From NCBI GenBank assembly GCA_963675295.2, contig CAXXKJ010000001.1, forward strand, positions 96,001 to 160,000: a stretch of 64,000 bases of DNA, given 5' to 3'. The DNA comes from a bacterium. GTDB lineage: Bacteria > Electryoneota > Electryoneia > Electryoneales > Electryoneaceae. This document shows, in pieces, positions 36,169-60,557 of the stretch (its first letter is position 1; each line of letters begins with the position of its first letter). The notes below the pieces were generated by a model that worked only from the letters and a program-made list of their open reading frames with translations, ran no database searches and had not been told where the DNA came from. The translations under genes and the position numbers were made by a program.

Positions 36169-37989
36169 ATGAGTAAGAAATTGGTTTTGACAACATTGTT
36201 GCTCGGTCTGCTCACCGTTTCGGCAATGGCTCAGCCGACAAACCCGGCCCCAACCCCGACGGAACCGGCGAATGAAGTGACCTCGCTGTTCAGCGACGTC
36301 TACACGAACGTTACGGTGGACACCTGGTCCGCGGTCTGGGATGCGGCGGATGTCGAAGATGTTCTGATTCAGGGCAACCCGACCAAGCTGTACACCAACC
36401 TCGTGTTTGCCGGCATCGAATTCACCTCGCAGCCGATCGATGCTTCCACTCACACCACGTTCCACATGGACATCTGGACCCCGGATCCGACCTCGACTCC
36501 GAACGTTTTCAAGATCAAGCTGGTCGACTTCGGTGCCGATGGCCTCTTTGGTGGTGGCGATGACAGCGAACATGAACTCGTGTTTGACGAGTTCACAGAT
36601 CCGCCGTTGGTGACCGGAGAGTGGATTCAGTTTGATATTCCGATGTCCGATTTCGCCGGCCTCGCGAGCAGTGAACACCTCGCGCAGCTGATCATTCAGG
36701 CTGATCCGGGCCCGGACACGGTTTACATGGACAACGTCTACTTCAGCGGCGTTGCCGGAACGCAGGCCGAGCCGACCGAACCGGCTCCGACCCCGACCGA
36801 GCCGGAAGCGGAAGTCATTTCCCTGTTCAGCAACGCGTACACCGATGAACCGGTCGACACCTGGTCTGCGGACTGGGATCAGGCCACGGTGACAGACATT
36901 CAGATCGACGGCAACGAGACCAAGCTGTACACCGGTCTTGTCTTCGCTGGCATCGAGTTCACCTCGCAGGTGATCGACGTGTCCAACATGGAATATTTCC
37001 ACATGGACATCTGGACCCCGGATCCGACATCTTCCCCGGCGATCTTTGAGATCAAGCTGGTTGACTTCGGTGCGGACGGCGTCTGGAGTGGTGGGGACGA
37101 CAGCGAAGCGGCCATCGTCTTCGACGAATTCAGCACCCCGCCGCTGGTGTCGGAACAGTGGATCAGCTTCGACATTCCGATGGCGGATTTCGTTGGCCTG
37201 ACCAACCTGACCAGCATGGCGCAGTTGGTGATCACCAGCACGCCGAACACGGTGTACATCGACAACATCTACTGGCACACCTTCATTAACCCGCCGGCAA
37301 ACTACGTGTTGACGATGGACCCGGTGACCGATCCAGTGATCGTGCCGCAGGGTGGCATGTTCTCGTTCGACATTTCGGTGACTAACAACACACCGAACAC
37401 AGGCAGCGGCAACCTGTGGACCGAAGCCGTGCTGCCGAACGGCAACACCTTCGGCCCGATCATCAACGTGACTGGTCTGACCCTCCCGGCGCAGCAGTCG
37501 TTCTACTTCACCAACCTCGCTCAGGCGATCCCGGCGGTTGCTCCGGCAGGTAACTACATCTACAAGTGCAAGATCGGGTACCCGGGCTTTGTCGTCGCGA
37601 TGGATGGCTTCGCGTTCGAGGTCGTAGCCAGCGCCGGTGGTGACGCCAGCAGCTGGAACGTAAGCGGCACCGAACAGATCGAAAAGGCGATGGATCGCGC
37701 GATGGCGAGCACGGAAGTTCCGACCGAAGCCGCGTTGATGTCGGTCTATCCGAACCCGTTCAACCCGACGACGACCGTTCAGCTGACCCTGCCGAATGTG
37801 GCGAACGTCCAGGTCAACGTGTTCAACAGCCTCGGCCAGCAGGTCGCGACGCTTGCGTCCGGTTCGCTGACCGCGGGCACCCATGCGCTGCAGTTCAACG
37901 GTGCGAACCTCGCCTCCGGGCTGTATTTCGTCCGTGCGACGGTTGACAATCAGCCGCTGGACATGCAGAAGCTGATGCTGCTGAAGTAA
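36169..37989 (+). CDS. Secreted non-catalytic protein: two CBM-like modules, Ig-like module, sorting domain
   Basis: Signal peptide; 2x APTPT..SLFS..Y...DTWSA.WD...FHMDIWTP...KLVDFGADG...DN.Y; YPNPFN tail. Confidence 0.82.
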   Translation: MSKKLVLTTLLLGLLTVSAMAQPTNPAPTPTEPANEVTSLFSDVYTNVTVDTWSAVWDAADVEDVLIQGNPTKLYTNLVFAGIEFTSQPIDASTHTTFHMDIWTPDPTSTPNVFKIKLVDFGADGLFGGGDDSEHELVFDEFTDPPLVTGEWIQFDIPMSDFAGLASSEHLAQLIIQADPGPDTVYMDNVYFSGVAGTQAEPTEPAPTPTEPEAEVISLFSNAYTDEPVDTWSADWDQATVTDIQIDGNETKLYTGLVFAGIEFTSQVIDVSNMEYFHMDIWTPDPTSSPAIFEIKLVDFGADGVWSGGDDSEAAIVFDEFSTPPLVSEQWISFDIPMADFVGLTNLTSMAQLVITSTPNTVYIDNIYWHTFINPPANYVLTMDPVTDPVIVPQGGMFSFDISVTNNTPNTGSGNLWTEAVLPNGNTFGPIINVTGLTLPAQQSFYFTNLAQAIPAVAPAGNYIYKCKIGYPGFVVAMDGFAFEVVASAGGDASSWNVSGTEQIEKAMDRAMASTEVPTEAALMSVYPNPFNPTTTVQLTLPNVANVQVNVFNSLGQQVATLASGSLTAGTHALQFNGANLASGLYFVRATVDNQPLDMQKLMLLK

Positions 37990-38020: not shown

Positions 38021-38058
38021 CCTGCCGGTCACAATCTGGCCGGCAGGTGTTTCTTTTT
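38021..38058 (+). terminator. Intrinsic terminator
   Basis: CCTGCCGGTCA/TGGCCGGCAGG stem plus TGTTTCTTTTT. Confidence 0.75.
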
Positions 38059-38095
38059 GTACCAACCATTTCGGGACTCAACTGAGGAATTGACG

Positions 38096-39517
38096 ATGAA
38101 CAGGATGTTCCTTTTTGCTTTCCTGATGCTGAGTGTCGCTGTCACGCCGGTGTTCGCACAGCCGTCCGAACCCGCGCCGACACCGACTGAACCCGCAAAC
38201 GAGGTGACGTCGCTGTTCAGCAACGCCTACACTGATCAGCCGGTTGATACGTGGTCGGCGGATTGGGACATGGCGGACGTCGAAGATGTCCAGATTCAGG
38301 GCAATGACACCAAGCTGTACACCAACCTCACGTTCGCGGGGATCGAGTTTACCTCCAATACGTTGGATGTGTCCGACCATTCGCACTTCCACATGGACAT
38401 CTGGACCCCGGATGCGACAGCTTCACCGGCGGTCTTCGCGATCAAACTGGTCGATTTCGGTGCGGACGGCCTCTACGGCGGCGGTGATGACAGCGAATCT
38501 GAGATCCCGTTCAACGAGTTCAGCGATCCGCCGCTAGTCACCGAATCCTGGATCGAATTCGACATTCCGATGTCTGATTTCTCGGCACTGACCAACCTGA
38601 CCAACATGGCGCAGCTGGTCATCTCCGGCGATCCGAACACCGTCTACGTCGACAACATCTACTTCTACGGCACCGGCGGCAGCGTCCTGCCGGAACCGAC
38701 CGTCGCAGCGCCGACTCCGACCGAACCGGCGGACGAAGTCGTCTCGCTGTTCAGCAACGCCTACGACGATGTTACCGTCGACACCTGGTCCGCGGGTTGG
38801 GATAACGCGAACGTGGAAGACGTGCAGATCGCGGGCGACGACGCAAAGAAGTATACCGGCCTCGTCTTCGCCGGCATCGAGTTCACCTCGAACCCGGTGG
38901 ATGCGTCCGACAAAGCCTATTTCCACATGGACATCTGGACGCCGGATGATACCGGCGCCCCCGCCGTGTTCAAGATCAAGCTGGTCGATTTCGGCGCGGA
39001 TGGCCTGTTCGGCGGCGGCGATGACAGCGAATCGGAGCTGACATTCAGCGCGACCAGCGATCCGCCGCTGGTGTCAGAATCCTGGATCAGCTTCCACATC
39101 CCGCTGACCGATTTCGCTGGCCTGACCAACCTGAGCAGTATGGCTCAGCTGGTGATCTCCGGCGACCCGAACACGGTCTACGTGGACAACATCTACTTCA
39201 GCGATTCCTTCATGAGCGTGTCCGAACCGAATGCGGATCCTTCGCGGCCGCTGGAGTTCGCGACGGTGAATGTGTATCCGAACCCGTTCAACCCGGCGAC
39301 GACCGTCGCGTTAACCCTGCCGTACGCGGCAGACGTGCAAGTCGCTGTTTACAACGGGCTCGGCCGTCAGGTCGCGACCCTCGCGCAGGGCCGCTATGCC
39401 GCCGGAACGCACAGCCTCGCGTTTGACGGTTCCACGCTCGCGTCCGGCGTGTACCTCGTCCGGGCGACCGTCGATCAACAGCCGCTGGCGATGCGCAAGA
39501 TGCTGCTGCTGAAGTAA
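38096..39517 (+). CDS. Secreted non-catalytic protein: two CBM-like modules plus sorting domain (tandem paralog)
   Basis: Same repeats as the 36169 gene; GAGG RBS; YPNPFN...RKMLLLK. Confidence 0.82.
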   Translation: MNRMFLFAFLMLSVAVTPVFAQPSEPAPTPTEPANEVTSLFSNAYTDQPVDTWSADWDMADVEDVQIQGNDTKLYTNLTFAGIEFTSNTLDVSDHSHFHMDIWTPDATASPAVFAIKLVDFGADGLYGGGDDSESEIPFNEFSDPPLVTESWIEFDIPMSDFSALTNLTNMAQLVISGDPNTVYVDNIYFYGTGGSVLPEPTVAAPTPTEPADEVVSLFSNAYDDVTVDTWSAGWDNANVEDVQIAGDDAKKYTGLVFAGIEFTSNPVDASDKAYFHMDIWTPDDTGAPAVFKIKLVDFGADGLFGGGDDSESELTFSATSDPPLVSESWISFHIPLTDFAGLTNLSSMAQLVISGDPNTVYVDNIYFSDSFMSVSEPNADPSRPLEFATVNVYPNPFNPATTVALTLPYAADVQVAVYNGLGRQVATLAQGRYAAGTHSLAFDGSTLASGVYLVRATVDQQPLAMRKMLLLK

Positions 39518-40970: not shown

Positions 40971-43436
40971 ATGCGGATCAGATTGACTTCTTCATGGATC
41001 ATCGTCACGCTTGCAGCGCTGCTGCTGATCGTGGCCGGCTGCGAACGCGAAAGCGATGTGACCAATCCGGCAACCTCGCCGGACGACGCCGACGTTTTTC
41101 TCGACGAGTTCGGTGACAATGTAACCTTCCAGGCGTTCGCTGGCTCGAAGCTGGATGCGCTCGACACTGACGCCTCGGTCGTGCATAGCGGCACACAATC
41201 CCTGATTATCACTGTCCCCGATGAGGGCAACGCCGCCGGAACCTTCGCCGGCGGGGCGTTTACCACCTCGATCGCACGTGACTTGAGCGGTTATGACGCC
41301 GTCACCTTCTGGGCGAAAGCCAGCACTCCGGCGACGCTGAACGTAGTCGGTCTTGGCAACGACAACACCGGCACCTCGTTGTACATGGCGGAGATGTACA
41401 ACCTTGAGTTGACGACCTCCTGGACCAAGTTCATCGTTCCGATTCCGTTGCCGGAGAAACTGGAGGCGGAACAGGGGCTGTTCTACTTCGCCGAAGGGCC
41501 GGAGGACGGCCAGGGCTACCAGTTCTGGATTGATGATCTGCAGTTCGAAGCGATAGAGCTCAACACTCCGCAGCCGGATATCGGCACCGAGACGGTCGAA
41601 GCCGAGATCGGCGAAGAAATTGTCGTCGATATGGCGACCGTGACCTACAACATCGGTGGGAACGACTACATCCTCTGGGCGCAGCAGAACTACTTCAGCT
41701 TCGCCTCGTCCAACACGAACGCGGTGGAAGTCGCGGAGGACGGCACGATTACCGCCGTTGGCCTCGGCACGGCGACAATCACGGCGGAACTGGGGTCCGT
41801 TGATGCGGACGGCCAGATCACGGTCACCGTCGGCGAAGGTCCGGACCTGCCGGGTGAACCGGCACCGACTCCGACGCAGGACGCCGGAGATGTCATCTCC
41901 ATCTTCAGCAACGCATACACCAACGCCAGTGTCGACTCCTGGTCGGCTGACTGGGATGTGGCGGAGTATGCCGACCTGCAGATCGATGGCGACGATGTCA
42001 AGCAATACACTGACCTGGTGTACGCCGGAATCGACTTCTCCTCGGTGCCGATCAACGCCAGCGGGATGACCCATTTCTACATGAACCTGTGGACGCCGGT
42101 TACGGTGGATGCGTCTACCCAGTTCAAGATCAAGCTGGTCGATTTCGGCGCGGATGGGGTGTATCAGGGCGGCGACGACGTCGAATCCGAATTGACCTTC
42201 ACCACTACCAGCAGCCCGGCGCTGGTGTCCGGATCGTGGATCAAGTTCGACATTCCGCTGGTCAACTTCAGCGGCCTGGCCACGACTGAACACGTCGCTC
42301 AGCTGATCATCTCCGGCGGGAATCTGCCGACGGTGTACGTGGACAACATCTTCTTCTACGACAGCGGCCAGATCATCACCGATCCCGAGCCGACCACACC
42401 GGCGCCAACCCCGACGCACGATGCCGGCGACGTCATCTCCCTGTTCAGTAATGCGTATGACGACGTGACCGTCGATACCTGGTCGGCCGACTGGGATGAA
42501 GCTGAGCTGGAAGACGTGCAGATCGCCGGAAATGACACGAAGAAGTACACCGGCCTGACCGTCGCCGGAATCGAGTTCACATCGGAAACGATTGACGCGT
42601 CCGAAATGACATACTTCCACATGGATTTCTGGACGCCGGACGCGACCTCGGATCCTGCCGCGTTCAAGATCAAGCTGGTCGATTTCGGTGCGGACGGTGC
42701 CTGGGGCGGCGATGATGACGTCGAGCACGAACTCACCTTTACCGCGAACACCGACCCGGCGCTGGAAACCACCAACTGGGTCAGCTTCGACATTCCGTTG
42801 CAGGATTTCGCCGGCCTCACCACCACTGGCCACCTGGCGCAGTTGATCCTCTCCGGTGACCCGAACACGGTATACATCGACAACGTCTATTTCCACGGCG
42901 GCGAAGTGATTCCGGATCCGGAACCAACCGAGGCTGCACCGGCACCGACCTACCCGGCGGCAAACGTGATCTCGCTGTTCTGCGATGAATACACGAACGT
43001 GCCCGTTTCCACCTGGTCGGCGGAGTGGGATGAGGCGTTCTTCGAAGATGTCCAGATCGCCGGCAACGACACGAAGAAGTATTCGATTTCCGTCTACGCC
43101 GGGATCGAGTTCCTCGATCCGACGATCGACGCGTCCGGGATGACGCACTTCCGGATGGACATCTGGACGCCGGACGATACAGCGGACCCGGCGATATTCA
43201 AAATCAAGCTGGTCGATTTCGGCGCGAACGGCGTGTGGTCGGGCGGTGACGACGTCGAGCATGAGCTCACCTACACCGCGTCCACCACGCCTGGACTGGT
43301 CACGGGATCGTGGATCACCTTCGATATCCCGCTGTCGGAGTTTACCGGGCTCGTGACAAGCGAACACATGGCTCAATTGGTTATCTCTGGGGACCTGAGT
43401 ACGGTGTATGTCGACAACGTCCTCTTCCACAACTAG
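40971..43436 (+). CDS. Surface glycan-binding lipoprotein: galactose-binding-like domain, Ig-like domain, three CBM-like modules
   Basis: GGAGG RBS; lipobox VAGC; RDLSGYDAVTFWAKA; ASSNTNAVEV..G.ITAVG.GTA; 3x DFGA(D/N)G modules. Confidence 0.82.
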   Translation: MRIRLTSSWIIVTLAALLLIVAGCERESDVTNPATSPDDADVFLDEFGDNVTFQAFAGSKLDALDTDASVVHSGTQSLIITVPDEGNAAGTFAGGAFTTSIARDLSGYDAVTFWAKASTPATLNVVGLGNDNTGTSLYMAEMYNLELTTSWTKFIVPIPLPEKLEAEQGLFYFAEGPEDGQGYQFWIDDLQFEAIELNTPQPDIGTETVEAEIGEEIVVDMATVTYNIGGNDYILWAQQNYFSFASSNTNAVEVAEDGTITAVGLGTATITAELGSVDADGQITVTVGEGPDLPGEPAPTPTQDAGDVISIFSNAYTNASVDSWSADWDVAEYADLQIDGDDVKQYTDLVYAGIDFSSVPINASGMTHFYMNLWTPVTVDASTQFKIKLVDFGADGVYQGGDDVESELTFTTTSSPALVSGSWIKFDIPLVNFSGLATTEHVAQLIISGGNLPTVYVDNIFFYDSGQIITDPEPTTPAPTPTHDAGDVISLFSNAYDDVTVDTWSADWDEAELEDVQIAGNDTKKYTGLTVAGIEFTSETIDASEMTYFHMDFWTPDATSDPAAFKIKLVDFGADGAWGGDDDVEHELTFTANTDPALETTNWVSFDIPLQDFAGLTTTGHLAQLILSGDPNTVYIDNVYFHGGEVIPDPEPTEAAPAPTYPAANVISLFCDEYTNVPVSTWSAEWDEAFFEDVQIAGNDTKKYSISVYAGIEFLDPTIDASGMTHFRMDIWTPDDTADPAIFKIKLVDFGANGVWSGGDDVEHELTYTASTTPGLVTGSWITFDIPLSEFTGLVTSEHMAQLVISGDLSTVYVDNVLFHN

Positions 43437-43453: not shown

Positions 43454-44692
43454 ATGGCCAAGCCGACGAATGGAAACGGGAAACGGTCGCGTGATGTGCT
43501 GACGCGGAACCGTCCCCTCGCGGAATCGGTGCTGCGTTTCATCTGGAAGGAAAAGCAGACCACGCGGGCGTACATCGCGAAGACGATGGAGTTGTCACGC
43601 TCGACAGCGTCCGAGATCGTGGACATGCTGCTGAAAACAGGCCTGATTGCAGAGGTCGGCGCGGGACGGTCGTCCGGCGGACGGAGGCCGATTGTGCTCG
43701 AGTTTCAGGACAACGCGTGCAGCCTGCTCGGTGTCGATGTCGGCGCGACACACGTGTCCGTTGCCATGACCAACCTGCGCGGCAAGGTGCTGAAGTGGAA
43801 GGAAAAGCGCCACCCGGTACGCACCGACCCGACGGGCACCCGCCAGCTGGTGATCGACATGTGCGACGATATCGTCGAGTCGATGAAAGGCGTCGCCAAA
43901 CCAGTCGTGCGGATCGGTGTCGCGGTGCCGAGCCCGGTTGATCCGTTGAACCCGGAATGGATCTCCGAGACCGTTATCCCGGCGTGGCAGGGCGAGAGTG
44001 GTCTAGCGGAGCTGCGGGAACGGTACGCGGTTCCGGTGCACATCGATAACGACGCGAACCTTGGCGCACTGGCCGAGATGTGGTGGGGCGCGGGACGGAA
44101 TGTCAGCGACTTCGTTTACATCAAGATCGCACACGGTATCGGTGCCGGGTACATCCTCAACGGTCAGATCTACCGTGGCGCACGCGGTGTCGCCGGCGAA
44201 ATGGGCCACCTGCCGATCGACCCGAGCGGCAGAAAATGTGTCTGCGGAATGCATGGCTGCCTGGCGACGTTCGTCAGCGCGCCGTCACTGGCCGAACGTG
44301 TCGTCGAGCTGCTGCCGCAGTATCCGAACAGCCTGCTCGGCCAGGTCGAACGGCGGATCTCGACCATCGTTGATGCCGCCCTGCAGGACGATCCGCTTGC
44401 AAACCAGGTCGTCGCAGAAGTCTCGGACTACCTCAGCATTGCGATCACCGGCCTGTTCAACATGATCAACCCGAAGCTGGTCATTCTCGGCGGCGGATTG
44501 GCACGGCTGGACGAAAAACTGCTCAAGCCGATGCGGGAGAAGGTGCACAGCAGCATCCTTGTCAGCTCAGCAGCCGCCGACATTCGCTCCGGCGAACTCG
44601 GGTCGCAGACCATCGCGCTCGGCGCGGCCACCTTCGCGCTGGAAGCACTGATTACCGACCCTGAACTGTACCGAAACGGAGAGCACGGCTGA
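43454..44692 (+). CDS. ROK-family (XylR/NagC-like) repressor
   Basis: N-terminal HTH, SSGGRRP, GVDVGAT, DNDANLGALAE, GEMGH, CVCG.HGC. Confidence 0.93.
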   Translation: MAKPTNGNGKRSRDVLTRNRPLAESVLRFIWKEKQTTRAYIAKTMELSRSTASEIVDMLLKTGLIAEVGAGRSSGGRRPIVLEFQDNACSLLGVDVGATHVSVAMTNLRGKVLKWKEKRHPVRTDPTGTRQLVIDMCDDIVESMKGVAKPVVRIGVAVPSPVDPLNPEWISETVIPAWQGESGLAELRERYAVPVHIDNDANLGALAEMWWGAGRNVSDFVYIKIAHGIGAGYILNGQIYRGARGVAGEMGHLPIDPSGRKCVCGMHGCLATFVSAPSLAERVVELLPQYPNSLLGQVERRISTIVDAALQDDPLANQVVAEVSDYLSIAITGLFNMINPKLVILGGGLARLDEKLLKPMREKVHSSILVSSAAADIRSGELGSQTIALGAATFALEALITDPELYRNGEHG

Positions 44693-45507
44693 TGATTTCA
44701 CGCTACGAGCGGCTGACGTTAACCCTGCTGATTGTAATGCTGATGAATACTACCGGCTGCACCACACCGACCGGCACCGACGGCGACACGTGGGAACTCG
44801 CGTGGCAGGACGAATTCGACGGCGACGCGGGTCAACTCCCGGACGCGTCCAAGTGGGGCTACGATATCGGCACCGACTGGGGCAACGCCCAGCTCGAGTG
44901 GGATACCGACCGGCCGGAGAATGTTTCGCTGGACGGCAACGGCAACCTCGCCATCACCGCCCGGAAGGAAAGCTACGAGGGGCAGAACTACACCTCGGCG
45001 CGGATCGTCACCCGTGGCCTGTTCACGATGAACACCGGCCGTATCGAAGCACGGATCAAGCTGCCGATCGGCGCGGGTATCTGGCCCGCTTTCTGGCTGC
45101 TTGGCGCAAACATCAACGAAGTCAGCTGGCCGCAGTGCGGCGAGATTGACATCATGGAATACCGAGGGCAGGAGCCGAACATCGTACACGGCAGCCTGCA
45201 CGGCCCGGGCTATTCCGCCGGGGACGCGTTCACCAACCGCTACGTGCTGAACAGCGGTACCTTCAACGACGATTTCCACACCTTCCGCGTGGACTGGTCG
45301 GATGACTACATCCGCTGGTTCATCGACGACATCCTGTACCAGACGATTACCATCGATCAGGTACGCGCGAAAGGCGAGTGGGTGTTCGATCATCCCTTCT
45401 ACATCATCCTGAACATCGCTGTCGGCGGTGGGTTTGTGGGACCGCCGAATGCCAGCACCGAGTTTCCGCAGACGATGCTGATCGACTGGGTGAGGGTGTA
45501 CCAGTAA
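44692..45507 (+). CDS. GH16 endo-beta-1,3-glucanase (laminarinase-type), probable lipoprotein
   Basis: WQDEF, WGNAQLE, YTSARI, GIWPAFW, WPQCGEIDIME, NIAVGG, DWVRVYQ. Confidence 0.93.
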   Translation: MISRYERLTLTLLIVMLMNTTGCTTPTGTDGDTWELAWQDEFDGDAGQLPDASKWGYDIGTDWGNAQLEWDTDRPENVSLDGNGNLAITARKESYEGQNYTSARIVTRGLFTMNTGRIEARIKLPIGAGIWPAFWLLGANINEVSWPQCGEIDIMEYRGQEPNIVHGSLHGPGYSAGDAFTNRYVLNSGTFNDDFHTFRVDWSDDYIRWFIDDILYQTITIDQVRAKGEWVFDHPFYIILNIAVGGGFVGPPNASTEFPQTMLIDWVRVYQ

Positions 45508-45543: not shown

Positions 45544-46992
45544 ATGGCCGCTGCCCAGTACACAACCGCACCCGAAGACCGCATTTCGATGGGTCACCGC
45601 CTGATCTACGGGCTCGGCGGGTTTGTCAACAACCTGCTCGCCGCGGCCAGTGGCGGGATGATGATCGTGCTCAACCTCGGGCTCGGGATGAATCCGGCGC
45701 TGGTCGGGCTGCTTGGCGCACTGCCACGTCTCACCGACGCGCTCACCGATCCGTTGATGGGCTACATCTCCGATAACACCAGCACACGTTGGGGACGGCG
45801 CCGGCCTTACATCTTCTGGGGTGCCATCGCGGCGGGTATTATCTTCGCCCTCCTGTGGCAATTGCCACACGACAAGAGCGAAACCTTCTATTTCGTCTGG
45901 TTCCTCGTCGGTTCCATCCTGTTCTACATGGGTTACACCGTGTTCGCGACGCCGTGGGTCGCGCTCGGCTACGAACTGACCCCCGATTACCACGAACGCA
46001 CCCGGCTGATGGGCACGCAGAACTTCATCAGCCAACTCGCGTATGTCGTGTCGCCGTGGTTCCTCTGGATCATGACCTACGAAGGCTTTTTCGAGGACCA
46101 GGTTACCGGCGCGGCGGGACTGGCGATCATCATCGCGGTGTTCACCATCGGCGTCGGTATCCTCCCGGCGATCATCCTGCGTGAACGGTTCAAGGAAGCG
46201 TCACTGAACGGTGAGACCAACGCGATCGCACCGAAGTCGATCCTCGCGAACCTGGTGGAATTCTTCAAGGGATTCGGCACCACGCTGAAGTCCGGCCCGT
46301 TCCTCAAGCTCGGCCTCGCCACCTTCCTCGTGTTCAATGGCTTCATCCTGATCTCGGCGTTCGCGTCGTACGTGATCATCTACTACGTCGCGGGCGGCGA
46401 TCAGAACCTCGGCGCGAAGTATGCCGGTTACGCCGGGACTGTCGGCGCGGCGGGCACGTTCCTGATCATTCCACTCATCACCTGGCTGGCGACGAAGATT
46501 GGCAAACGCCGGGCGTTCTTCGTCTCGACCGGCCTCTCGATCATCGGTTACGCGCTCAAGTGGGTATGCTACACCCCGGAGAATCCGTGGCTGACCCTCG
46601 TCCCGGCGCCGTTCCTGTCCTTCAGCCTCGGCGGGCTGTTCACGCTGATGCCGTCGATGGTGGCGGACGTGGTCGATCTGGACGAGCTGAAAACGCACAA
46701 ACGCCGCGAAGGGATGTACGGCTCGATCTTCTGGTGGGTGGTCAAGCTCGGCATGGCGGCGGCGCTGGCCGGCGGTGGCTACCTGTTGAACTGGACCGGA
46801 TTCGACGTCGAACTCGGCGGCAATCAGTCCGACCGCGCGCTCACCCTGATGCGCCTCGCCGACATGCTGATCCCGATTGTCACTTCACTGATCGCGATCT
46901 GGGCGGTGTGGACGTTCCCGATCACCGAGGAGAAGGCGCACGAGGTCCGGATGGAACTCGAACGCAGACGTGGAAAACCCGGCGAAGCTTGA
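45544..46992 (+). CDS. MFS glycoside-pentoside-hexuronide (GPH) transporter
   Basis: DALTDPLMG..SD.T.TRWGRRRPY, ELTPDYHERT, ADVVD, RREG. Confidence 0.92.
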   Translation: MAAAQYTTAPEDRISMGHRLIYGLGGFVNNLLAAASGGMMIVLNLGLGMNPALVGLLGALPRLTDALTDPLMGYISDNTSTRWGRRRPYIFWGAIAAGIIFALLWQLPHDKSETFYFVWFLVGSILFYMGYTVFATPWVALGYELTPDYHERTRLMGTQNFISQLAYVVSPWFLWIMTYEGFFEDQVTGAAGLAIIIAVFTIGVGILPAIILRERFKEASLNGETNAIAPKSILANLVEFFKGFGTTLKSGPFLKLGLATFLVFNGFILISAFASYVIIYYVAGGDQNLGAKYAGYAGTVGAAGTFLIIPLITWLATKIGKRRAFFVSTGLSIIGYALKWVCYTPENPWLTLVPAPFLSFSLGGLFTLMPSMVADVVDLDELKTHKRREGMYGSIFWWVVKLGMAAALAGGGYLLNWTGFDVELGGNQSDRALTLMRLADMLIPIVTSLIAIWAVWTFPITEEKAHEVRMELERRRGKPGEA

Positions 46993-47088: not shown

Positions 47089-49305
47089 TTACGCCATAAG
47101 CTCAAACTCCGCACCCAGATTCGCCGTCGAATCGCCACCGATCCAGACATCAAACCAGCCCGGTTCCGCTTTGAGCCGCATGTCGCGTCCGTAAAACGCG
47201 AGGTCTTCCCTACTCAACTCAAACCGCACCCGTTTCGTCTCGCCCGGCTGCAACCGGACACGCTGGAAACCCTTCAGCTCGCGCACCGGACGTGTCACAC
47301 TGCCGGCCCGATCCCGTACATACAACTGCACCACTTCGGTGCCTTCGCGGGTGCCGATGTTCGTCACCTCCGCCGATACTGCAACCGTCTCGCCCAGCAT
47401 AATCTGATCCGACTCAACCCGGATCGCGTCATACCGGAAACGGGTATAGCTCAGCCCGTACCCGAATGGCCACATCGGTGACGGATCGACATCGAGATGG
47501 AACGACGTATTCCCGAACGAGTGCTGCGACGCACCCTGCTCGATCTCGTCAATGTGACGCACCGACTCCGGTGTCGCGGGACGGCCGGTGTTTTTCTGCG
47601 AATAATAGATCGGGATCTGGCCGGTGACGCGGGGGAACGTCACCGTCAGCTTCCCGACCGGTTCTTCGCGGCCAAACAGCAGGTCAACAATCGCCGGGCC
47701 CGCCATCGTGCCCGGATGCCATGCGTACAGGATCGCATCCACCGACCCAGCGACATCTTGCAACGCCAATGGCCGGCCGGCCATCACGACCAGCACCACC
47801 GGCGTGCCAACCTTCGCGAGCTCATGAATCAGCTCAGCCTGATTGCCCGGCAAGCCGATATCCGCACGTGAATGCGCTTCGCCGCTGAGGATCGACTCTT
47901 CGCCGAGGAACAGCAGTACCACATCCGATTGCCGTGCAGCGGCAATCGCCTCGTCGAAGCCGTCCCGCGAACGGCTGCGAGTCGTCTCCAGCGCTCGAAC
48001 ATGGTTGATCGTGATCCGATCGCCCGCAACCTCGCGCAACGCCTGCAACGGGGTCTGGCTCAGCGCCGGGTCACCGTCAAAGACCCACGTGCCCAGCTGT
48101 TCGTAGCCATCGTCCGCGAGCGGACCAATCACCGCGACCGACTTGACCGCGTCGGGTGACAACGGCAGCAGCCAGTCCTGATTCTTCAGCAAGACACAGC
48201 TTTCCAGCGCTGCCTGTTTCGCCAGGCCCAACGCGTCCGGGCTGCCCGGCTTCGGCACATCAACCGGGATCGTAGTGCGTTCGTCGAACAGTCCGAGCGC
48301 AAATTTCACACGCAGGACATTGGCAACCATCGCGTCGATCTGGGCGATGGTCAATCGGCCTTCGTCAACCAGGTCCGCGAGATGGTCGGCGTAGGTCCGG
48401 CTCGCCATCTCCATGTCCACACCGGCGGACGCCGCCGCGAGGGCGGATGCCTTGTCGCCATCGGTCAGGCCGTGAACCGCCAACTGCGGGATTGATTCCC
48501 AGTCGCTGACCACCATGCCGTTGTAGCCCCACTCCTCGCGCAGGATTTTGCGCAGCAGAAAATCGTTCGCACTGGCGGGGATACCGTCCAGGTCGCTGAA
48601 CGAGGTCATGAAGGTTGCGACACCCGCGTCCGCCGCCGCCTTGAACGGTGGCAGGTGGACGTTGCGCAGCTCGTTTTCCGGGATGTTTGTCGTGTTGTAG
48701 TCGCGTCCGCTCTCGCTTGCACCATAGCCGGCGAAGTGCTTTGCGCACGCCGCGACTGAGGCCGGGTCAGACAGGTCATCACCCTGGAAGCCTTCGATCA
48801 TCGCTTGTCCATACAACGCGGCCAGCCACGGGTCTTCACCGAACGTTTCGGCAACACGGCCCCAGCGTGGATCGCGGCCGATGTCCAGCATCGGGGCGTA
48901 GGTCCAGTTGACACCGGCCGCGACCGCCTCGCGCGCGGCGATCCGCGCCGTGTCGCGCACGATGTCCGGGTTCCAGCTCGCCGCCAATCCGAGGGGGATT
49001 GGGAAGACGGTCTTGAAGCCGTGAATCACGTCGCGCCCGACCAGTAACGGAATCCCGAGCCGGCTGTCCTCACGCGCGATCCGTTGAAACTCACGGATCT
49101 GTTCCGCGCCGACTTCGTTGAGAATGCCGCCGATTTCGCCCGCGGCAATCTGGCTGTTGAACACGTCCGCCTGCTCCGGTCCGGGCGTGTTCATCACGTT
49201 CAGCTGACCGATCTTCTCCGCCAGTGTCATCCGGCTGATCAGCTCCGCGATCCGTTGCTCCAGCGTGGGCGCGACTGGTGTAAGTGTATCTGGTTCCCGT
49301 GCCAC
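47089..49305 (-). CDS. GH3 beta-glucosidase (BglX-like), no signal peptide
   Basis: MTLAEKIGQL, DVIHG, RDPRWGR, KHFAGYG, VSDW, SGEAHSR, Fn3-like C-terminus; GTG start at 49305 after GGAG. Confidence 0.93.
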   Translation of the reverse strand: MAREPDTLTPVAPTLEQRIAELISRMTLAEKIGQLNVMNTPGPEQADVFNSQIAAGEIGGILNEVGAEQIREFQRIAREDSRLGIPLLVGRDVIHGFKTVFPIPLGLAASWNPDIVRDTARIAAREAVAAGVNWTYAPMLDIGRDPRWGRVAETFGEDPWLAALYGQAMIEGFQGDDLSDPASVAACAKHFAGYGASESGRDYNTTNIPENELRNVHLPPFKAAADAGVATFMTSFSDLDGIPASANDFLLRKILREEWGYNGMVVSDWESIPQLAVHGLTDGDKASALAAASAGVDMEMASRTYADHLADLVDEGRLTIAQIDAMVANVLRVKFALGLFDERTTIPVDVPKPGSPDALGLAKQAALESCVLLKNQDWLLPLSPDAVKSVAVIGPLADDGYEQLGTWVFDGDPALSQTPLQALREVAGDRITINHVRALETTRSRSRDGFDEAIAAARQSDVVLLFLGEESILSGEAHSRADIGLPGNQAELIHELAKVGTPVVLVVMAGRPLALQDVAGSVDAILYAWHPGTMAGPAIVDLLFGREEPVGKLTVTFPRVTGQIPIYYSQKNTGRPATPESVRHIDEIEQGASQHSFGNTSFHLDVDPSPMWPFGYGLSYTRFRYDAIRVESDQIMLGETVAVSAEVTNIGTREGTEVVQLYVRDRAGSVTRPVRELKGFQRVRLQPGETKRVRFELSREDLAFYGRDMRLKAEPGWFDVWIGGDSTANLGAEFELMA

Positions 49306-49325
49306 AAATACTCCGTGCTGCTCGT

Positions 49326-52300
49326 CTAGTTTCCGATGGTGAGACTCAGGTACGTGCGAATCTCCCACTCGCTGCCCTGTGACAGGCCCGGTGTTTCGGT
49401 GTCGCAGGTTACATTGCCGCTGGCGTCAACGATCGTCGCCGGGCAATACCGCGGCGAATACTGGTCGAGTGACCGCCACGTAACCCGCACGCCAAACCGT
49501 GTCTGCGGCTCGTCAAACCACTCCGGCATCCCGACGAACGTCGACACATCACCCACCAATTGCAGCGGATACGTCAGGTTGAAGTCCTTGTGGTAATCGT
49601 ACGGACCCCAGTCATTCACTTTCGCGGACGCGATGAACTTGAACGAATCCAGAATCAACCGCACGTCGCCACCGTACCGTTCGACCAGCCGGGGATCATT
49701 GCCGTTCGGCTCGCCGGTGCCGACAAATACGTTGGTCACCAGTCCGAAGCCCGGCCACGCTTTCGACACCATCCGGGAATACACTTCCCACAGGTCACGC
49801 GCGGGCGTGGCGCCCGGGAAGGCGAATGATGTAACTCCATCCTCAAGGATGCCGATCGCCGCGTCCTGCGTCGTCGGGTGATGCTTGAAGACAAAGCCGA
49901 GGTTGCCGGCAAACGCGGCATCTTCGCGCAGGTCGTTGTCCCAGTCGTACATCCAGGTCGCCGGGGTTGGGTCATAGGTCAGCAGGATTTCGCCTGCGGT
50001 CGTCTCACGGTTGGCCCGCACCGCGAACGCGTCGTCGAGGATGTTGCGCGGACGTCCCGGAGTGGGCACATCGCCCGGGATCGGCCCGACAATCGGCTTC
50101 TGCCAGAGGAAGTTCGGCGCGATGGTCCAGTTGCCGATCATGTAGGTGAAGCCGGTGATCACGTTGTTCTGGTTCCCGCTGCCGGAATCGGCCAGCCGCC
50201 AGCCGGTGAAGGTCTGCACCGCCGTCGGACCTCCATCTGCCACCAGCCCCATCGAGGCGGCCTGCAGGTACCAGTTCCAACGGCCATACGAGAACGTGAA
50301 CTTGACCTTGCCGCCGAAAGTGTCTGTATCCTTGATCTCGTCCTGCAACACGGTGTAGTTGCCGGAAGACCCTTCGACGAACTGGAAGGAGTCGCCGATT
50401 CGTTCGCGCCCACCGACGATCCCACCGATCTGAATTCCGAACGGACCCTTTTCCGTCTCGAGCGCCAGGGTCACCTTCTCCGTCGAGGGGGACGGGATCG
50501 CGATGGAACTGACCGCCGCGTCACGCTGCTCGAGGTCGCGCTGGTATACTGCCGATGCCAGCACCGGGCCAATATCATACTGATACTTCGCCAGCACCGC
50601 CGGGTTCGCACCCCACCACAACTGCGGACCGAATGCCAACACCAGGTTGTTCAACGCACGCTTGCCAGCCACCTCGAAACCAACCGGCGCCTCACCGTTG
50701 TAGATGTCGATGTTCTCGCCGTAATTCGCCTCACGGTACAGGCCGAAGAAGTCGCCCTCATACCCCCAGTGATAATGCCCGGTGCGGTAGAACCCGTCCA
50801 GATTGAACCAGTGATCCTCCCAGTGGATGCTCGCCTGGTACAGTTTCACCCGCTCGACGTCGGTCAACTCTTTGGTGCCGGAGGTGGTTTGTACCGTCAC
50901 CGGACGGCCGCGATTCTCGTAGAAGATCTCGTCGATCGGGTTGGTCGGCACGTTGCCGAGGATGTTAAGCGTCGCATATCCGGTTACGTTGTCCGCCGGA
51001 GTCGCCTCGAACGTGGTGTACACCGACTGCATGTGATCGAAGCCGAGGAACGCGGGGTAGGTATCGCTGGTCGACGACGGCTGGTCCGGTGTGCTGATGT
51101 TCGTCCCGCCGGTGCTGTACGTTTCCATATCGACCCGTAAGCCGCTCAACCGTACCCGGCGCAGGGTTTCCGTCTGTAGCGCGGCCTTGTCGGAACGCGC
51201 CTCGAGCGTCGCGCCGAGCGGATTGATATTCGCGAAATGCGCGTTGATCTCCGCCAGACCGACCTCCGGCGCGTACGGGTTCAGCTCATGCGCCTGCTTC
51301 AACGCATAGTACGCCGCGCGCGGATACAGCTGGTAAATCCCCGCGCTGTTCGGCATGCCCTTGGCGCAAATACCCCACCACTCCTCATTCATGTTGTTTT
51401 CGCCCGGAATGAAGTCGTCGGGGTAGCCGTCGTTGGGCCAGGACGCGTTGATATCATGCACTTCCAGGTTGCTGGTCTGCTCGAATTTCCACCAGCCGTC
51501 GCTGAACTGGAAAGTCATCCCGCCGATGGAGTTGTCCGCGAGGCCGTGCCCGGCGGCGTTCGCGTAAATCTCCCGCCACTGGCTGATCAGGTACCGTGCC
51601 TGCATCTGTTGATCTTCGCTCAACGTTTTCGCGTTGAACGCGTCCGAACCGAACTCGGTGAACACAATCGGCACACCCAGCTTCTCCTTGACCACCTCAA
51701 ATGCGTCACGGAAGGAATACCCGCGGTACATGTTGGTGCCGAAAATGTCGAGGTTGCCCGCCTCGGACGCGATCAGGTCGATGTACTGCACGTCCCCGTT
51801 GGCGATGGCGACGGGACGCATGTCGTCGATGCCGTGAATCGCGTCGATGATCTCACCGTACAGGGAATAGAGGTAACGCGCGCGGGCGGTGTCACGTTCG
51901 CCTTCCGGCAACGCTTCGGTCTCGGCCGAGGACCACGTCAGCCCATAGTTGTTCTCGTTGCCGAGCAGCCACATCAGGATGCCGGGCGTGTCCCGATACT
52001 GTTCGACCAGGCCGGTGATCTCGTCCTTGAGCGAGGCACGGGTCAGCTCGTCCGAATAGTCTGTGCTCGGGATGTACAAGCCGTCAATCGTGACACCATA
52101 CCGGCCCATCGGATGGTTCAGCACGGTGTAAATGCCGTAGGTCTCGTAAATGTACTGCACCCACTCGGGTGGGACACCGACATACTGCCGGATCACATTC
52201 ACGCCCATGTTCTTCAGCAGCAGCATCTCACCGTGCAACGCCTCCCGGATCACCTCTTCCGGTTGATTCCACAAGGCGTAGTTGTAGTTGTCGCCGATCG

Positions 52301-52508
52301 GGATGTAGTCCCAGTTCATCCCGTTGATGATGAAGTCCTCACCGTTCACCTGCAGCCGTGACCCGCTGGCGTCATTCACCACCTGCACCCGGTCAACACC
52401 GGCCAGCGCCGGGAGGGCAACACCGAGGATCAGCAGTGCCAGCAACAGCAACAGGCTACGTCCACGCAATCCCGCTGCACGGTTCCGGTTCGCCGTAAGG
52501 ATTCCCAT
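49326..52508 (-). CDS. Secreted clan GH-A (GH2-TIM-like) glycosidase with a ~600-aa beta-rich C-terminal region
   Basis: Signal peptide; MGVNVIRQY, WLLGNENNY, FTEFG, FQFSDGWWK, NEEWWG; C-terminal amphipathic strands. Confidence 0.8.
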   Translation of the reverse strand: MGILTANRNRAAGLRGRSLLLLLALLILGVALPALAGVDRVQVVNDASGSRLQVNGEDFIINGMNWDYIPIGDNYNYALWNQPEEVIREALHGEMLLLKNMGVNVIRQYVGVPPEWVQYIYETYGIYTVLNHPMGRYGVTIDGLYIPSTDYSDELTRASLKDEITGLVEQYRDTPGILMWLLGNENNYGLTWSSAETEALPEGERDTARARYLYSLYGEIIDAIHGIDDMRPVAIANGDVQYIDLIASEAGNLDIFGTNMYRGYSFRDAFEVVKEKLGVPIVFTEFGSDAFNAKTLSEDQQMQARYLISQWREIYANAAGHGLADNSIGGMTFQFSDGWWKFEQTSNLEVHDINASWPNDGYPDDFIPGENNMNEEWWGICAKGMPNSAGIYQLYPRAAYYALKQAHELNPYAPEVGLAEINAHFANINPLGATLEARSDKAALQTETLRRVRLSGLRVDMETYSTGGTNISTPDQPSSTSDTYPAFLGFDHMQSVYTTFEATPADNVTGYATLNILGNVPTNPIDEIFYENRGRPVTVQTTSGTKELTDVERVKLYQASIHWEDHWFNLDGFYRTGHYHWGYEGDFFGLYREANYGENIDIYNGEAPVGFEVAGKRALNNLVLAFGPQLWWGANPAVLAKYQYDIGPVLASAVYQRDLEQRDAAVSSIAIPSPSTEKVTLALETEKGPFGIQIGGIVGGRERIGDSFQFVEGSSGNYTVLQDEIKDTDTFGGKVKFTFSYGRWNWYLQAASMGLVADGGPTAVQTFTGWRLADSGSGNQNNVITGFTYMIGNWTIAPNFLWQKPIVGPIPGDVPTPGRPRNILDDAFAVRANRETTAGEILLTYDPTPATWMYDWDNDLREDAAFAGNLGFVFKHHPTTQDAAIGILEDGVTSFAFPGATPARDLWEVYSRMVSKAWPGFGLVTNVFVGTGEPNGNDPRLVERYGGDVRLILDSFKFIASAKVNDWGPYDYHKDFNLTYPLQLVGDVSTFVGMPEWFDEPQTRFGVRVTWRSLDQYSPRYCPATIVDASGNVTCDTETPGLSQGSEWEIRTYLSLTIGN

Positions 52509-52607
52509 CGCATACTCCCAGCAAAATCGCCCACGAATCCCCGGCGCTGTTGACGCTTTCAACGTCACCTACCGCCCGGACTCGAGGCCGGCCACGTCCC
52601 CAACGGG

Positions 52608-52656
52608 ACTTTGTTTTCTTGCCGAACAAAGTAAGCCCGTGAGCCCCGGGAGTCAA
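52608..52656 (-). promoter_or_regulatory. Sigma70 promoter overlapped by ROK-type operator 4
   Basis: Minus strand TTGACT-N17-TACTTT; operator ACTTTGT-N11-ACAAAGT at 52608-52632. Confidence 0.85.
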
Positions 52657-52722
52657 GAGCGGGACGGAACATTGAGACAAAACCTGACGGTTGCGGGCTC
52701 TGATTCTGTGGCTGTGAGGTCC

Positions 52723-52755
52723 AGAAGAAAACCCGGCATCGTGCGACACCGGGTT
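52723..52755 (-). terminator. Intrinsic terminator
   Basis: Minus strand AACCCGGTGTC..GATGCCGGGTT plus TTCTTCT. Confidence 0.65.
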
Positions 52756-52790
52756 GTGTTTCACTGACAACTGAGTACTGACCACTGTCC

Positions 52791-55700: not shown

Positions 55701-55805
55701 CATCAGGTAGGGGGCTCGTTCTGTGGGCTGCGGCACAAACCAGATCAACAGCAGCAGTACCGAGGCCAGGAAAAATGCGGTGACGGGGTGGGTGAACGAG
55801 CGCAT
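52791..55805 (-). CDS. BNR/Asp-box (VPS10-like) beta-propeller protein with sorting domain
   Basis: GPTNIGGRI, many SxDGGxTW boxes, HADHH, GGTQDNG, GTHGRS; YPNPFN tail. Confidence 0.87.
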   Translation of the reverse strand: MRSFTHPVTAFFLASVLLLLIWFVPQPTERAPYLMTPALMQDMKAELRGPVKEPNDWFMAQRVGPDGTLNMDAVRAGRERANVMRQQVSPLEETWLFEGPTNIGGRITALAVHPSNPGVVYAGGAVGGVFKSYDYGMNFTPIFDEDYAQSAGALAMDPNDPNRIWFGTGEANASGDSYPGVGIYLTEDAGATWTYKGLPESYHIGRIVVDPTDSDRIFVAVAGKLFGTNTERGVYRTEDGGDTWELVHYINETTGCIDIEINELNPDIVYAVMWERYRTPSTREVAGDDSGVWRSTDGGDTWQQLTNGIPSNDPNLGRGALAISPDNPDRLYLFHSGTPYPGSSSTPYYGSWRSDNGGDTWTSIDIGGYDDNLYSTFGWYFGESIVEPGNPNVIYVAGVDVIRSLDGGASWSTEFDNAHADHHAFWIDPNNPSHVTSGHDGGLDRSTNRGSTSTEFNSLGATQFYAICHDPSHPERLFGGTQDNGTMRTVNGGTGDWDRIYGGDGFYCLVDPRDNGYAYAESQNGNMARSTNGGASFYGISEWWSDRCNWMSPFCFDPFNYDRLYFGSYRVYRTNNRGSDWNTISGDLTDGDDPGSLTFGTITTIAASAVQPNYIVVGTDDANVWVTQNGGSNWTRIDSALPEMWVSRVAFHPTEPNTIFCTFSGHRVSDPTPHVYRSDNLGATWYSVSGTGAGELPEGPVNDIIIDPDDPSRYYVGTDFGVFFTTNEGDTWAALGQGLPMSAVFDIEFIASERRLVAGTHGRSMYSIALGNPSPVTFNVTPTSSTTIPASGGTLVYTVSLQSSLAQSYPGVDFWTSVELQNGNVFGPLFHQTFTMTPFFNATVTGLTQEIPSNAPAGTHEFRAHLGLNVNNPLFTESFSFTKLSNGTDAAGMVYADWPAGGGSWIADEQTDAAVPTGFVMHEAYPNPFNAMTTVRVSLPEASDLTVTVVNTLGQTVARLVDGYTQAGTHELAFDATNFASGAYFIHASVPGQLNQTQKVMLVR

Positions 55806-60530: not shown

Positions 60531-60557
60531 TTGTCCATCTCCTCGTTCTGATAGCGA

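Follow-up and report, generated by a model that had tools for sequence, protein, structure and literature searches.

The fusion gene and its product

The present analysis concerns a window of 64,000 nt, that is, the whole stretch between positions 96,001 and 160,000 of contig CAXXKJ010000001.1 (assembly GCA_963675295.2) from a bacterium of the phylum Electryoneota, and within it a minus-strand gene at 49326-52508 whose product combines a glycoside hydrolase (GH) domain, a helical linker and a predicted outer-membrane β-barrel in one chain. The gene lies among genes for a GH16 enzyme, a GH3 β-glucosidase, a sugar transporter, a ROK-family regulator and proteins with repeats resembling carbohydrate-binding modules (CBMs). 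Judged by its gene content, the locus reads as a catabolic regulon for the β-1,3-glucan laminarin, controlled by a ROK repressor through a candidate operator. Computation established how the domains are arranged, that the C-terminal part folds as a barrel, and that both the catalytic residues and the locus are conserved. We propose, with a probability of roughly 60%, that the fusion protein is a TonB-independent outer-membrane channel for β-1,3-glucan (laminarin), with a glucanase tethered at its periplasmic mouth. That the fusion has a role in β-glucan use is, taken by itself, highly probable.

The open reading frame (ORF) begins with a GTG at 52568 and closes with a stop codon at 49326-49328, which is included in the span to 49326, and the G+C content of the window is ∼61%. 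The database record P0005, of 1060 aa and 100% identical to the window protein, starts at the ATG at 52508, in exact agreement with the gene limits given by a first-pass annotation that a model had made from the DNA letters alone. Residue numbers are counted from this ATG. More than 5214 database proteins matched the C-terminal 611 residues at E ≤ 1e-3, and the best 120 database matches showed 60-66% identity, most of them being 1036-1105 aa long. By the measure of its sequence relatives, the fusion gene is real and strongly conserved, not a chance ORF, and the arrangement of enzyme, linker and barrel in one chain is hardly in doubt.

The N-terminus has the make-up of a Sec (type I) signal peptide, with basic residues, a Leu-rich core and then ...ALA/G near residue 36, and AlphaFold2 placed a low-confidence helix at residues 9-31. 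Neither a Cys lipobox nor a type IX secretion system (T9SS) C-terminal domain was found in the fusion protein by Pfam scan and inspection of the sequence. The full-length AlphaFold2 model had a mean predicted local distance difference test score (pLDDT) of 87.9 and a predicted template modelling score (pTM) of 0.63. In this model, DSSP assigned linker helices at residues 418-426 and 430-448, with the first barrel strand beginning three residues later, and thus the earlier description of a helical linker ahead of a ∼600-aa strand region held up. Mean column identity was lowest in the linker (0.33), against 0.62 in the enzyme and 0.50 in the barrel.

The C-terminal membrane barrel

The C-terminal region, which matched no Pfam or NCBIfam family and has no solved relative, was folded alone from a 63-row alignment. 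The resulting 616-residue AlphaFold2 model reached a pLDDT of 90.7 and a pTM of 0.87. Foldseek gave 447 matches at E ≤ 1e-3, and the top 50 were all outer-membrane barrels; the matches included MOMP (1.2e-11), OprD/Occ, BtuB, PfeA/FepA, AlgE, maltoporin, chitoporin, LptD and FimD. VIA-align, run independently against 48,161 representative chains, also listed membrane β-barrels only (50/50), with Z scores of 16.2 for AlgE, 15.0 for MOMP, 14.1-14.7 for Occ channels and 13.5 for maltoporin. Alignments running over the whole model (residues 6-616) came only from barrels of 22-26 strands, namely FimD (Z 12.9, 356 residues), PapC (364 residues), MtrB (406) and FyuA (362). DSSP delimited 26 long strands, or 24 plus one external hairpin; they are 10-19 residues long, and many alternate hydrophobic and polar residues.

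The strand peptides that the first-pass annotation had quoted as alternating are all present in the translation and each falls in a predicted strand of the AlphaFold2 model: FNLDGFY at 568-574, FGIQIGG at 690-699, GGKVKFTFSY at 731-741, WNWYLQA at 744-753, GNLGFVFK at 866-877, FGVRVTWR at 1003-1014 and WEIRTYLSLT at 1045-1058. The connectors differ markedly between the two sides of the barrel. On the side where both chain ends lie, the 12 connectors measure 2, 3, 6, 2, 2, 6, 2, 2, 21, 5, 2 and 10 residues (median 2.5), against 19, 36, 34, 7, 18, 7, 6, 26, 31, 26, 9, 11 and 30 residues (median 19) for the 13 on the opposite side. In the model, this asymmetry is the canonical pattern of outer-membrane proteins, in which the short turns face the periplasm. 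The C-terminal ∼610 aa are therefore modelled as one antiparallel β-barrel of outer-membrane type, belonging to an undescribed family, and the barrel that had been suspected C-terminal to the enzyme was recovered by the model, by Foldseek and by VIA-align alike.

The first-pass annotation had itself named the outcome that would speak against a barrel, soluble β-sandwich domains. Glycosidases often carry β-sandwich modules, and a string of such modules or of CBM domains could occupy a region for which there is no Pfam model. What was obtained is one continuous fold (pTM 0.87) whose 100 listed structural matches (50 from Foldseek and 50 from VIA-align) are without exception membrane barrels, with strands of 10-19 residues joined on one side by two-residue turns, and relatives of the protein end in the canonical outer-membrane C-terminal signal. 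The probability left to a soluble region is negligible.

This C-terminal signal was the subject of an earlier caveat, since the window protein ends in ...YLSLTIGN and lacks a terminal aromatic residue. The caveat stands for the subfamily of the window protein and does not extend to the family, whose divergent members have the canonical signal. The equivalent of the terminal aromatic is I1058, which is followed by two extra residues, and in 113 close homologues the last residue was M in 61, L in 13 and I in 8. Among divergent members, 23 of 38 representatives end in an aromatic residue, typically as ...Y-x-F, and their homologous last strand ends, for example, in ...EIQTFLEYKF or ...YEVVTYFQYFF. 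The last residue is also aromatic (F, Y or W) in 9/12 ORFs of a second clade, whose barrel is ∼30% identical and is likewise fused to a glycosidase (ORFs of 1007-1077 aa).

Conservation is unevenly spread along the barrel. The long loops at residues 575-608, 630-636, 754-779, 805-835 and 968-978 have mean column identities of 0.59-0.75, above those of most strands (0.35-0.5), and they are rich in aromatic and acidic residues, as in GHYHWGYEGDFFGLY, LWWGANP, PRNILDD..AVR.NRE and GPYDYH.DFN. Because they are conserved above the strands, their sequences suggest that the long loops form the working part of the channel. No Pfam match to Plug or TonB_dep_Rec (PF07715, PF00593) was found in the fusion protein at E ≤ 0.1, and this absence is credible because the same method detects 23 Plug-domain receptor genes elsewhere in the genome of the window, none of which reaches the SusC cut-off. 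SusD (PF07980) gave no match anywhere in that genome, which is 92.8% complete.

A candidate name for the barrel family was tried and rejected: language-model features pointed to DUF6029 (PF19494) with a score of 0.93, and BLASTP against the DUF6029 protein of the same genome gave an E value of 4.9 and hhalign a probability of 0.4. That DUF6029 protein (524 aa; C2:3161186-3162586; L002, 1498-3072, minus strand) ends in ...LTFTSIF, a canonical outer-membrane signal, and its gene adjoins one for a thioredoxin-like protein; the DUF6029 protein and the fusion barrel are unrelated.

The fused enzyme domain

Sequence searches with the single protein placed the N-terminal domain poorly. Pfam gave only a weak match to the GH2_C triosephosphate isomerase (TIM) barrel (29 bits, residues 109-328 of the GTG-started ORF), an NCBIfam scan of the N-terminal part returned nothing useful, and a single-sequence search of the PDB found only GH2 entries, β-galactosidases, at E values of about 0.02. 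A profile of 53 family members, compared with the PDB, ranked the endo-β-1,3-glucanase BuGH158 first (6pal_A, E 3.6e-10, 41.7 bits), followed by GH158(Pro) (9oro_A, E 7.4e-9), with GH2 enzymes behind; the matches to these two entries span only ∼200 positions. The secondary structure of a TIM barrel is present in the full-length AlphaFold2 model, and Foldseek with this model retrieved GH158(Pro) (9oro, E 3.3e-14), GH157 from Labilibaculum (9g5g, E 9.1e-13) and BuGH158 (6pal, E 2.2e-12), with GH2 enzymes from 5.7e-11. The choice between GH2 and GH158 raised by the first-pass annotation is hence answered in favour of the GH158 and GH157 endo-β-1,3-glucanases as nearest relatives, at a considerable distance.

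The NE and TE glutamates that the earlier reader had picked out as marks of a GH-A barrel lie in LGNENNYG (N184-E185) and FTEFG (E285), which are invariant in 36/36 aligned homologues, and together with the GH-A fold matches they sustain that assignment. In the profile alignment, the GNE and TEFG of the family stand opposite GNE and TEWG of BuGH158, an enzyme in which mutation of N136, E137 or E220 is described as abolishing activity (PMC7157763).

Two observations keep the domain at a distance from GH158. Identity in the structural alignments is only 11-16%, and the full-length model has no counterpart of the Ig-like domain of GH158, since residues 398-448 form helices there and the barrel begins at 452; according to the structural descriptions in PMC7157763 and PMC13195107, an 8-stranded Ig-like domain is packed on α7/α8 in both solved GH158 enzymes. 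Because of this low identity and the missing domain, we use the label GH158-like within clan GH-A and do not assign membership of GH158; by sequence, the domain probably represents a separate, unclassified family. With GH158 and GH157 (6PAL, 9ORO, 9G5G) it shares the (β/α)8 fold of clan GH-A, the aligned NE and E catalytic positions and the occurrence in β-1,3-glucan utilization loci. It differs from them in carrying a 610-residue membrane barrel where the Ig-like domain would be and a type I signal peptide, not a lipoprotein signal. From its neighbours GH16, GH3, GH17 and GH30, we infer that the fused domain hydrolyses β-1,3-glucan.

One could ask whether the glycosidase-like domain has lost its activity and serves as a glucan-binding gate or plug of the channel, given that so wide a barrel needs some gating element, that no plug domain is present and that the similarity to characterized GH158 enzymes is remote. 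Full invariance of both glutamates and the preceding Asn in the 36 close homologues would be unexpected if activity had been lost, and the NE motif is kept even in the second clade, in which a truncated ORF begins ...GNESNYG. An inactive gate is, on this evidence, very unlikely.

Organization of the locus

Coordinates of the features are collected in Table 1. The GH3 ORF lies directly downstream of the fusion gene and overlaps its stop codon, an arrangement suggestive of co-translation as a single unit. This GH3 enzyme has no signal peptide, which sets it apart from the periplasmic GH3 enzymes of Bacteroides β-glucan loci and leaves the locus with no candidate periplasmic glucanase other than the fused domain.

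Table 1. Features of the fusion gene and its neighbourhood, in window coordinates.
Feature	Position	Strand	Basis or remark
Two T9SS-sorted proteins with two ∼178-aa repeats each	36169..37989 and 38057..39517	+	
Lipoprotein (lipobox ...VAGC, then ERESD) with Ig-like domain and three ∼178-aa CBM-like repeats	40971..43436	+	
ROK-family regulator with N-terminal MarR-like helix-turn-helix	43310..44692	+	
GH16 laminarinase-type enzyme with lipoprotein signal ...TTGC	44692..45507	+	
MFS_2 sugar transporter, glycoside-pentoside-hexuronide type, predicted inner-membrane oligosaccharide importer	45544..46992	+	
GH3 β-glucosidase, BglX-like, no signal peptide, predicted cytoplasmic	47089..49368	-	Pfam/NCBIfam
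Predicted outer-membrane β-barrel, 24-26 strands, residues 452-1060, unnamed family	49329..51155	-	AlphaFold2, Foldseek, VIA-align
Helical linker, residues 426-451	51156..51233	-	DSSP of full-length model
Clan GH-A TIM barrel, GH158-like	51234..52397	-	Pfam, family profile, Foldseek
E285, predicted nucleophile, TE motif after strand β7	51654..51656	-	Conservation and TEWG of BuGH158
N184-E185, predicted acid/base pair, NE motif after strand β4	51954..51959	-	Conservation and BuGH158 alignment
Sec (type I) signal peptide, residues 1-36, ending ...ALA/G	52401..52508	-	Read from sequence
25-bp palindromic candidate operator ACTTTGTT-N9-AACAAAGT	52608..52632	.	76 nt upstream of fusion ATG
Terminator-like hairpin after upstream BNR/T9SS gene	52730..52755	-	11-pair stem and T-run, consensus match only

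The palindrome upstream of the fusion gene occurs four times in the window (35931-35955, 36019-36043, 40832-40856 and 52608-52632) against none expected, and the other three copies precede genes of CBM-repeat proteins. The rest of the 4.8-Mb genome holds only two more (C2:186009 and C2:1705044). The palindrome is likely to be the operator of the ROK regulator of the locus, and we treat it as a candidate. A TTGACT at 52651-52656 precedes the operator, and in TTGACT-17-TACTTT the second hexamer has 3/6 matches; a scan of 52400-52900 for the sigma-70 consensus returned no promoter. The hairpin farther upstream is predicted to set the transcription unit of the fusion apart from the upstream gene.

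The ∼178-aa repeat is present in seven copies (within 36217-37290, 38144-39211 and 41832-43433) that are 51-57% identical to the first one. It gave no PDB match at E ≤ 0.1 and no Pfam match at E ≤ 0.01, and the whole repeat lipoprotein gave no PDB match at E ≤ 0.01. Language-model features scored 0.87-0.92 for CBM11, CBM4_9, CBM30 and SGBP_B_XBD-like, a lead and not a finding. The repeat is probably an unnamed β-glucan-binding module, possibly one of the laminarin-binding CBMs ('CBMxx') mentioned in the preprint of Zuhlke et al. The lipoprotein that bears three of the copies is the counterpart of the lipoprotein encoded directly after the fusion in other phyla.

Upstream of the fusion gene, a run of four large T9SS-sorted proteins is encoded on the minus strand at 52791-62672. 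It consists of a protein with sortilin/BNR propellers (52791-55805), two proteins with FG-GAP/VCBS repeats (56006-57787 and 60558-62672) and a protein with a Kre9/KNH-like Ig domain (58386-60530), and the last ∼90 nt of these genes are 69-75% identical at the DNA level.

Related loci and distribution of the family

We compared 80 related loci by searching them with the neighbour proteins of the window by tblastn; 33 of these loci have full 10-kb flanks on both sides. In the full-flank loci the CBM-repeat partner was present in 31/33, GH16 in 29/33, MFS in 20/33, and GH3 and ROK in 13/33 each, while the corresponding numbers among all 80 loci were 55, 51, 33, 21 and 19. The partner lay at most 1.5 kb downstream and on the same strand in 30 of the 64 loci with at least 1.5 kb of downstream DNA. 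At its N-terminus, acidic residues come right after a lipoprotein signal (...C-E-R-D...), a pattern that resembles the surface-export signal of Bacteroidota lipoproteins. Only one of the 80 loci (L047) contained a Plug-domain ORF within the available flanks; the Plug profile used had been built from the receptors of the window's own genome and recovered 6/6 control receptors from five Bacteroidota genomes.

Two cultured Bacteroidota share an order of genes in which a Y_Y_Y/Reg_prop/LuxR-type regulator is followed by the fusion, a lipoprotein, GH16 and either GH3 or GH17, and neither SusC nor SusD was seen in these two loci. The fusion fills the slot where SusC/SusD normally sit. A regulator of this kind is described as the β-glucan regulator BguR in a preprint (10.64898/2026.01.10.698779).

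Loci of the second clade present the fusion alongside MFS, GH30, GH17, GH16 and CBM proteins, and directly after the fusion they encode a lipoprotein of about 216-245 aa (...TGCGD or ...AACLGD; metagenome loci L106:3348-3998, L107:9800-10462 and L113:9184-9888). By tblastn, this small lipoprotein matched nothing in the 80 loci of the first clade and nothing in the window's own genome, and the two clades therefore pair the barrel with different lipoproteins. Sequence comparison across both clades indicates that the pairing of fusion and lipoprotein is old and conserved, and that the catabolic theme is always β-1,3/1,6-glucan.

A protein of ∼1150 aa without a signal peptide or a Pfam match is encoded in 28 of the 80 loci, often beside GH17, and also occurs in the second clade (for example L041:17240-20668, L038:17785-21258 and L106:4096-7590). 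Its size and context would fit a GH149 β-1,3-glucan phosphorylase; tblastn found no such protein in the window's own genome.

The gene content of these loci bears on whether the barrel might work in the opposite direction, secreting a self-made β-glucan exopolysaccharide that would be trimmed or cleared by the fused hydrolase on the periplasmic side, after the manner of AlgE/AlgL, BcsC/BcsZ or PgaA/PgaB. A periplasmic hydrolase is indeed found together with an outer-membrane barrel in synthase-dependent export, the alginate exporter AlgE is the best single structural match (Z 16.2), and the barrels of BcsC and PgaA are among the VIA-align matches as well. The AlgE match, however, spans only 277 of the 616 residues, no glycosyltransferase, synthase or tetratricopeptide repeat (TPR) scaffold was found among the annotated genes of the window and the related loci, and the conserved neighbours are those of catabolism and uptake (GH16, GH3, GH30, GH17, an MFS importer and a sugar-responsive ROK or BguR-like regulator). 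Export thus has a very low probability.

An exhaustive search with the barrel yielded 467 clusters (50% identity) at E ≤ 1e-3 and 141 at E ≤ 1e-30. Most full-length members are fusions of 980-1130 aa whose N-terminal parts give weak GH2_C or GH72 matches, and one, P0247, carries an extra CBM4_9 module ahead of the enzyme. Several shorter entries (564-662 aa) seem to comprise the barrel without the enzyme, and at least two of them (P0192 and P0237) have signal peptides of their own; the metagenome relatives of P0192 that we fetched were all full fusions of 1007-1077 aa, and the split form is not established. In the databases, members are named 'glycosidase', 'GH2 TIM barrel-domain containing protein', 'beta-galactosidase' or 'hypothetical protein'.

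When one genome was searched for each species, at least 592 carriers were found in about ten phyla. They include Gemmatimonadota, Ignavibacteriota, Calditrichota, Krumholzibacteriota, Eisenbacteria, Fibrobacterota and Delongbacteria, one Myxococcales bin and many Bacteroidota, with Flavilitoribacter nigricans DSM 23189 and Flavobacterium terrisoli PT-3 as cultured representatives. Within the window's phylum, the fusion was present in only 3 of 79 genomes, at 62-63% identity, other phyla being equally close (65-66%), and the window's own genome has a single copy. Because homologues from its own phylum are no closer than those from others, this patchy distribution looks like that of a laminarin module transferred between phyla.

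Among the passages returned by a full-text literature search, including those from papers on GH158 and on laminarin, none describes a fusion of a glycosidase to an outer-membrane barrel. The 'GH2' genes in the laminarin polysaccharide utilization loci (PULs) of Croceitalea and Croceivirga, as listed in PMC11345257, may encode the fusion protein.

Proposed function

The coupling of import to hydrolysis put forward in the first-pass annotation fits the regulon, the lack of a plug, the lack of SusC/SusD and the connector lengths, and it is from these that we infer it. Following Sec export, the C-terminal ∼610 residues would insert as a plug-less, TonB-independent barrel of 24-26 strands, in which the conserved aromatic and acidic loops would line a glucan-selective passage. 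The CBM-like repeat proteins, one of them a lipoprotein and two anchored through T9SS, would capture laminarin on the cell surface, where the GH16 lipoprotein would perhaps nick it first; the polymer would then enter through the wide barrel and be cut at the periplasmic mouth by the tethered glucanase. The MFS transporter would carry the oligosaccharides over the inner membrane, the cytoplasmic GH3 would convert them to glucose, and the ROK regulator would switch the whole set through the 25-bp palindromes.

Of the separate parts of this proposal, the import function is probable, and a periplasmic position of the enzyme is about equally so. The model places the enzyme there because both termini of the barrel lie on the short-turn side. 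A modelled complex of enzyme and barrel gave an ipSAE of 0.00 in both runs, which speaks neither for nor against binding; since it yielded no contacts, the connector lengths are what assigns the enzyme to its side.

Several points weigh against the proposed channel. A count of 24-26 strands is far above the 14-18 of known sugar porins, so that plugging by loops or another purpose is possible, and it was read from the DSSP string and not from coordinates. In the close subfamily, going by the sequences, the terminal residue is usually hydrophobic and not aromatic. The pTM of just 0.63 for the full-length model leaves the mutual arrangement of enzyme and barrel uncertain. At 11-16% identity to GH158 and with no Ig-like domain, the substrate and mode of action of the enzyme are read from the locus. 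The 19-residue hydrophilic helix that abuts strand 1 would equally suit an autotransporter linker spanning the pore. Finally, many of the 80 related loci are short contigs, in which absences are evidence of lower quality.

The helix leads to the main rival. In type V autotransporter enzymes of the EstA type, the enzyme comes first, followed by a helical linker and, at the C-terminus, a 12-strand barrel, an order that the fusion reproduces in one chain, with a hydrophilic helix of 19 residues and strand 1 starting three residues after it. The barrel would then anchor, and perhaps translocate, the glucanase on the outside of the cell, with the linker helix in the lumen; laminarin would be cut outside and the fragments would enter by the fusion barrel or by other pores. 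The CBM4_9 module ahead of the enzyme in P0247 would be most useful outside the cell, and BuGH158 and its GH16 partner are given as predicted cell-surface enzymes of Bacteroides in PMC7157763. However, the predicted barrel has 24-26 strands, not the 12 (type Va) or 16 (type Vd) of autotransporters, it has no Autotransporter Pfam match, and the connector lengths put its N-terminus on the periplasmic side. A mere anchor would need neither loops that are conserved above the strands nor a place in the SusC/SusD slot beside a surface lipoprotein, and the linker, which would have to occupy the lumen, is the least conserved segment of the protein (0.33). These phyla normally display enzymes as lipoproteins or through T9SS, and the neighbouring genes use both routes, while a folded TIM barrel makes a poor autotransporter passenger. 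We therefore regard surface display as unlikely, while ranking it first among the alternatives to a channel with a periplasmic enzyme.

Taking the fusion as a channel, we also considered a hydrolysis ratchet, in which an intact or long laminarin molecule, caught by the surface lipoprotein with CBM repeats, threads the barrel and the periplasmic glucanase cuts it processively, pulling the chain inward without TonB energy. This extension is speculative and rather improbable. If it were true, it would amount to a 'selfish' glycan uptake independent of SusC/SusD that gene transfer has spread over about ten phyla, and it would explain how laminarin, a marine polysaccharide of very high abundance, is taken up outside Bacteroidota as well as in Bacteroidota loci without SusC/SusD.

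Comparison with known systems

To our knowledge, the only well-understood outer-membrane route for such glycans is the TonB-powered SusC/SusD system of Bacteroidota. The fusion resembles the SusC/SusD systems of the 1,3GUL of B. uniformis and of the Formosa laminarin PULs in its position after a regulator and ahead of a surface lipoprotein, GH16 and GH3, in combining a large outer-membrane barrel with a lipoprotein, and in the class of substrate. In contrast to them, it lacks both a plug and a SusD, shows no detectable resemblance to TonB-dependent receptors, and has an enzyme covalently attached. The SusC barrel, of 22 strands against the 24-26 predicted here, aligns at only Z 10.2, and the partner lipoprotein consists of CBM-like β-sandwich repeats, unlike the TPR-like SusD.

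LamB, chitoporin, CymA, OprD/Occ and AlgE are passive, plug-less barrels and give the best Z scores (13.5-16.2), and inward folding of the long loops as a specificity filter, as in these channels, is proposed for the fusion as well. Their 14-18 strands align to just 208-295 of the 616 residues, and the fusion barrel has no Pfam match to them. We know of no channel of the LamB, OprD, CymA or AlgE type with a fused enzyme. In size class, the barrel belongs with FimD/PapC, MtrB and LptD (24-26 strands), the sole solved barrels that follow the whole model (356-406 residues); there is no sequence relationship to these proteins, their functions are unrelated, and the fusion lacks the plug and the N- and C-terminal domains of ushers, the enclosed cytochrome of MtrB and the LptE partner of LptD. 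What is new is thus the size of the barrel, its family and the covalent enzyme, while a substrate-specific outer-membrane channel in a glycan-utilization locus is known.

Laminarin is described as one of the largest marine fluxes of fixed carbon (PMC11345257, PMC6246565). The fusion is probably the laminarin entry gate in many bacteria whose laminarin clusters lack SusC/SusD, and it represents a large family, numbering over 5,000 proteins in the databases and present in at least 592 species genomes, hidden under generic annotations. If it is an importer, polysaccharides would have a second way across the outer membrane, one independent of TonB; the fusion would also be the first channel of this membrane to bear a glycosidase by covalent attachment and would represent a new structural family of very large barrels, and in metagenomes of phyla without SusD it would be a better marker of laminarin use than SusC/SusD. 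Since cultured carriers exist, the idea is directly testable.

A fusion of transporter and carbohydrate-active enzyme (CAZyme) has a precedent in laminarin use. FbGH17B of Formosa sp. joins an MFS transporter to a GH17 laminarinase, and its authors proposed a coupling of hydrolysis and transport and stated that no transporter-CAZyme fusion had been described earlier (Unfried et al. 2018, PMC6246565). The two fusions differ in that FbGH17B pairs an α-helical transporter of the inner membrane with GH17, while the protein of the window pairs an outer-membrane barrel with a GH158-like domain.

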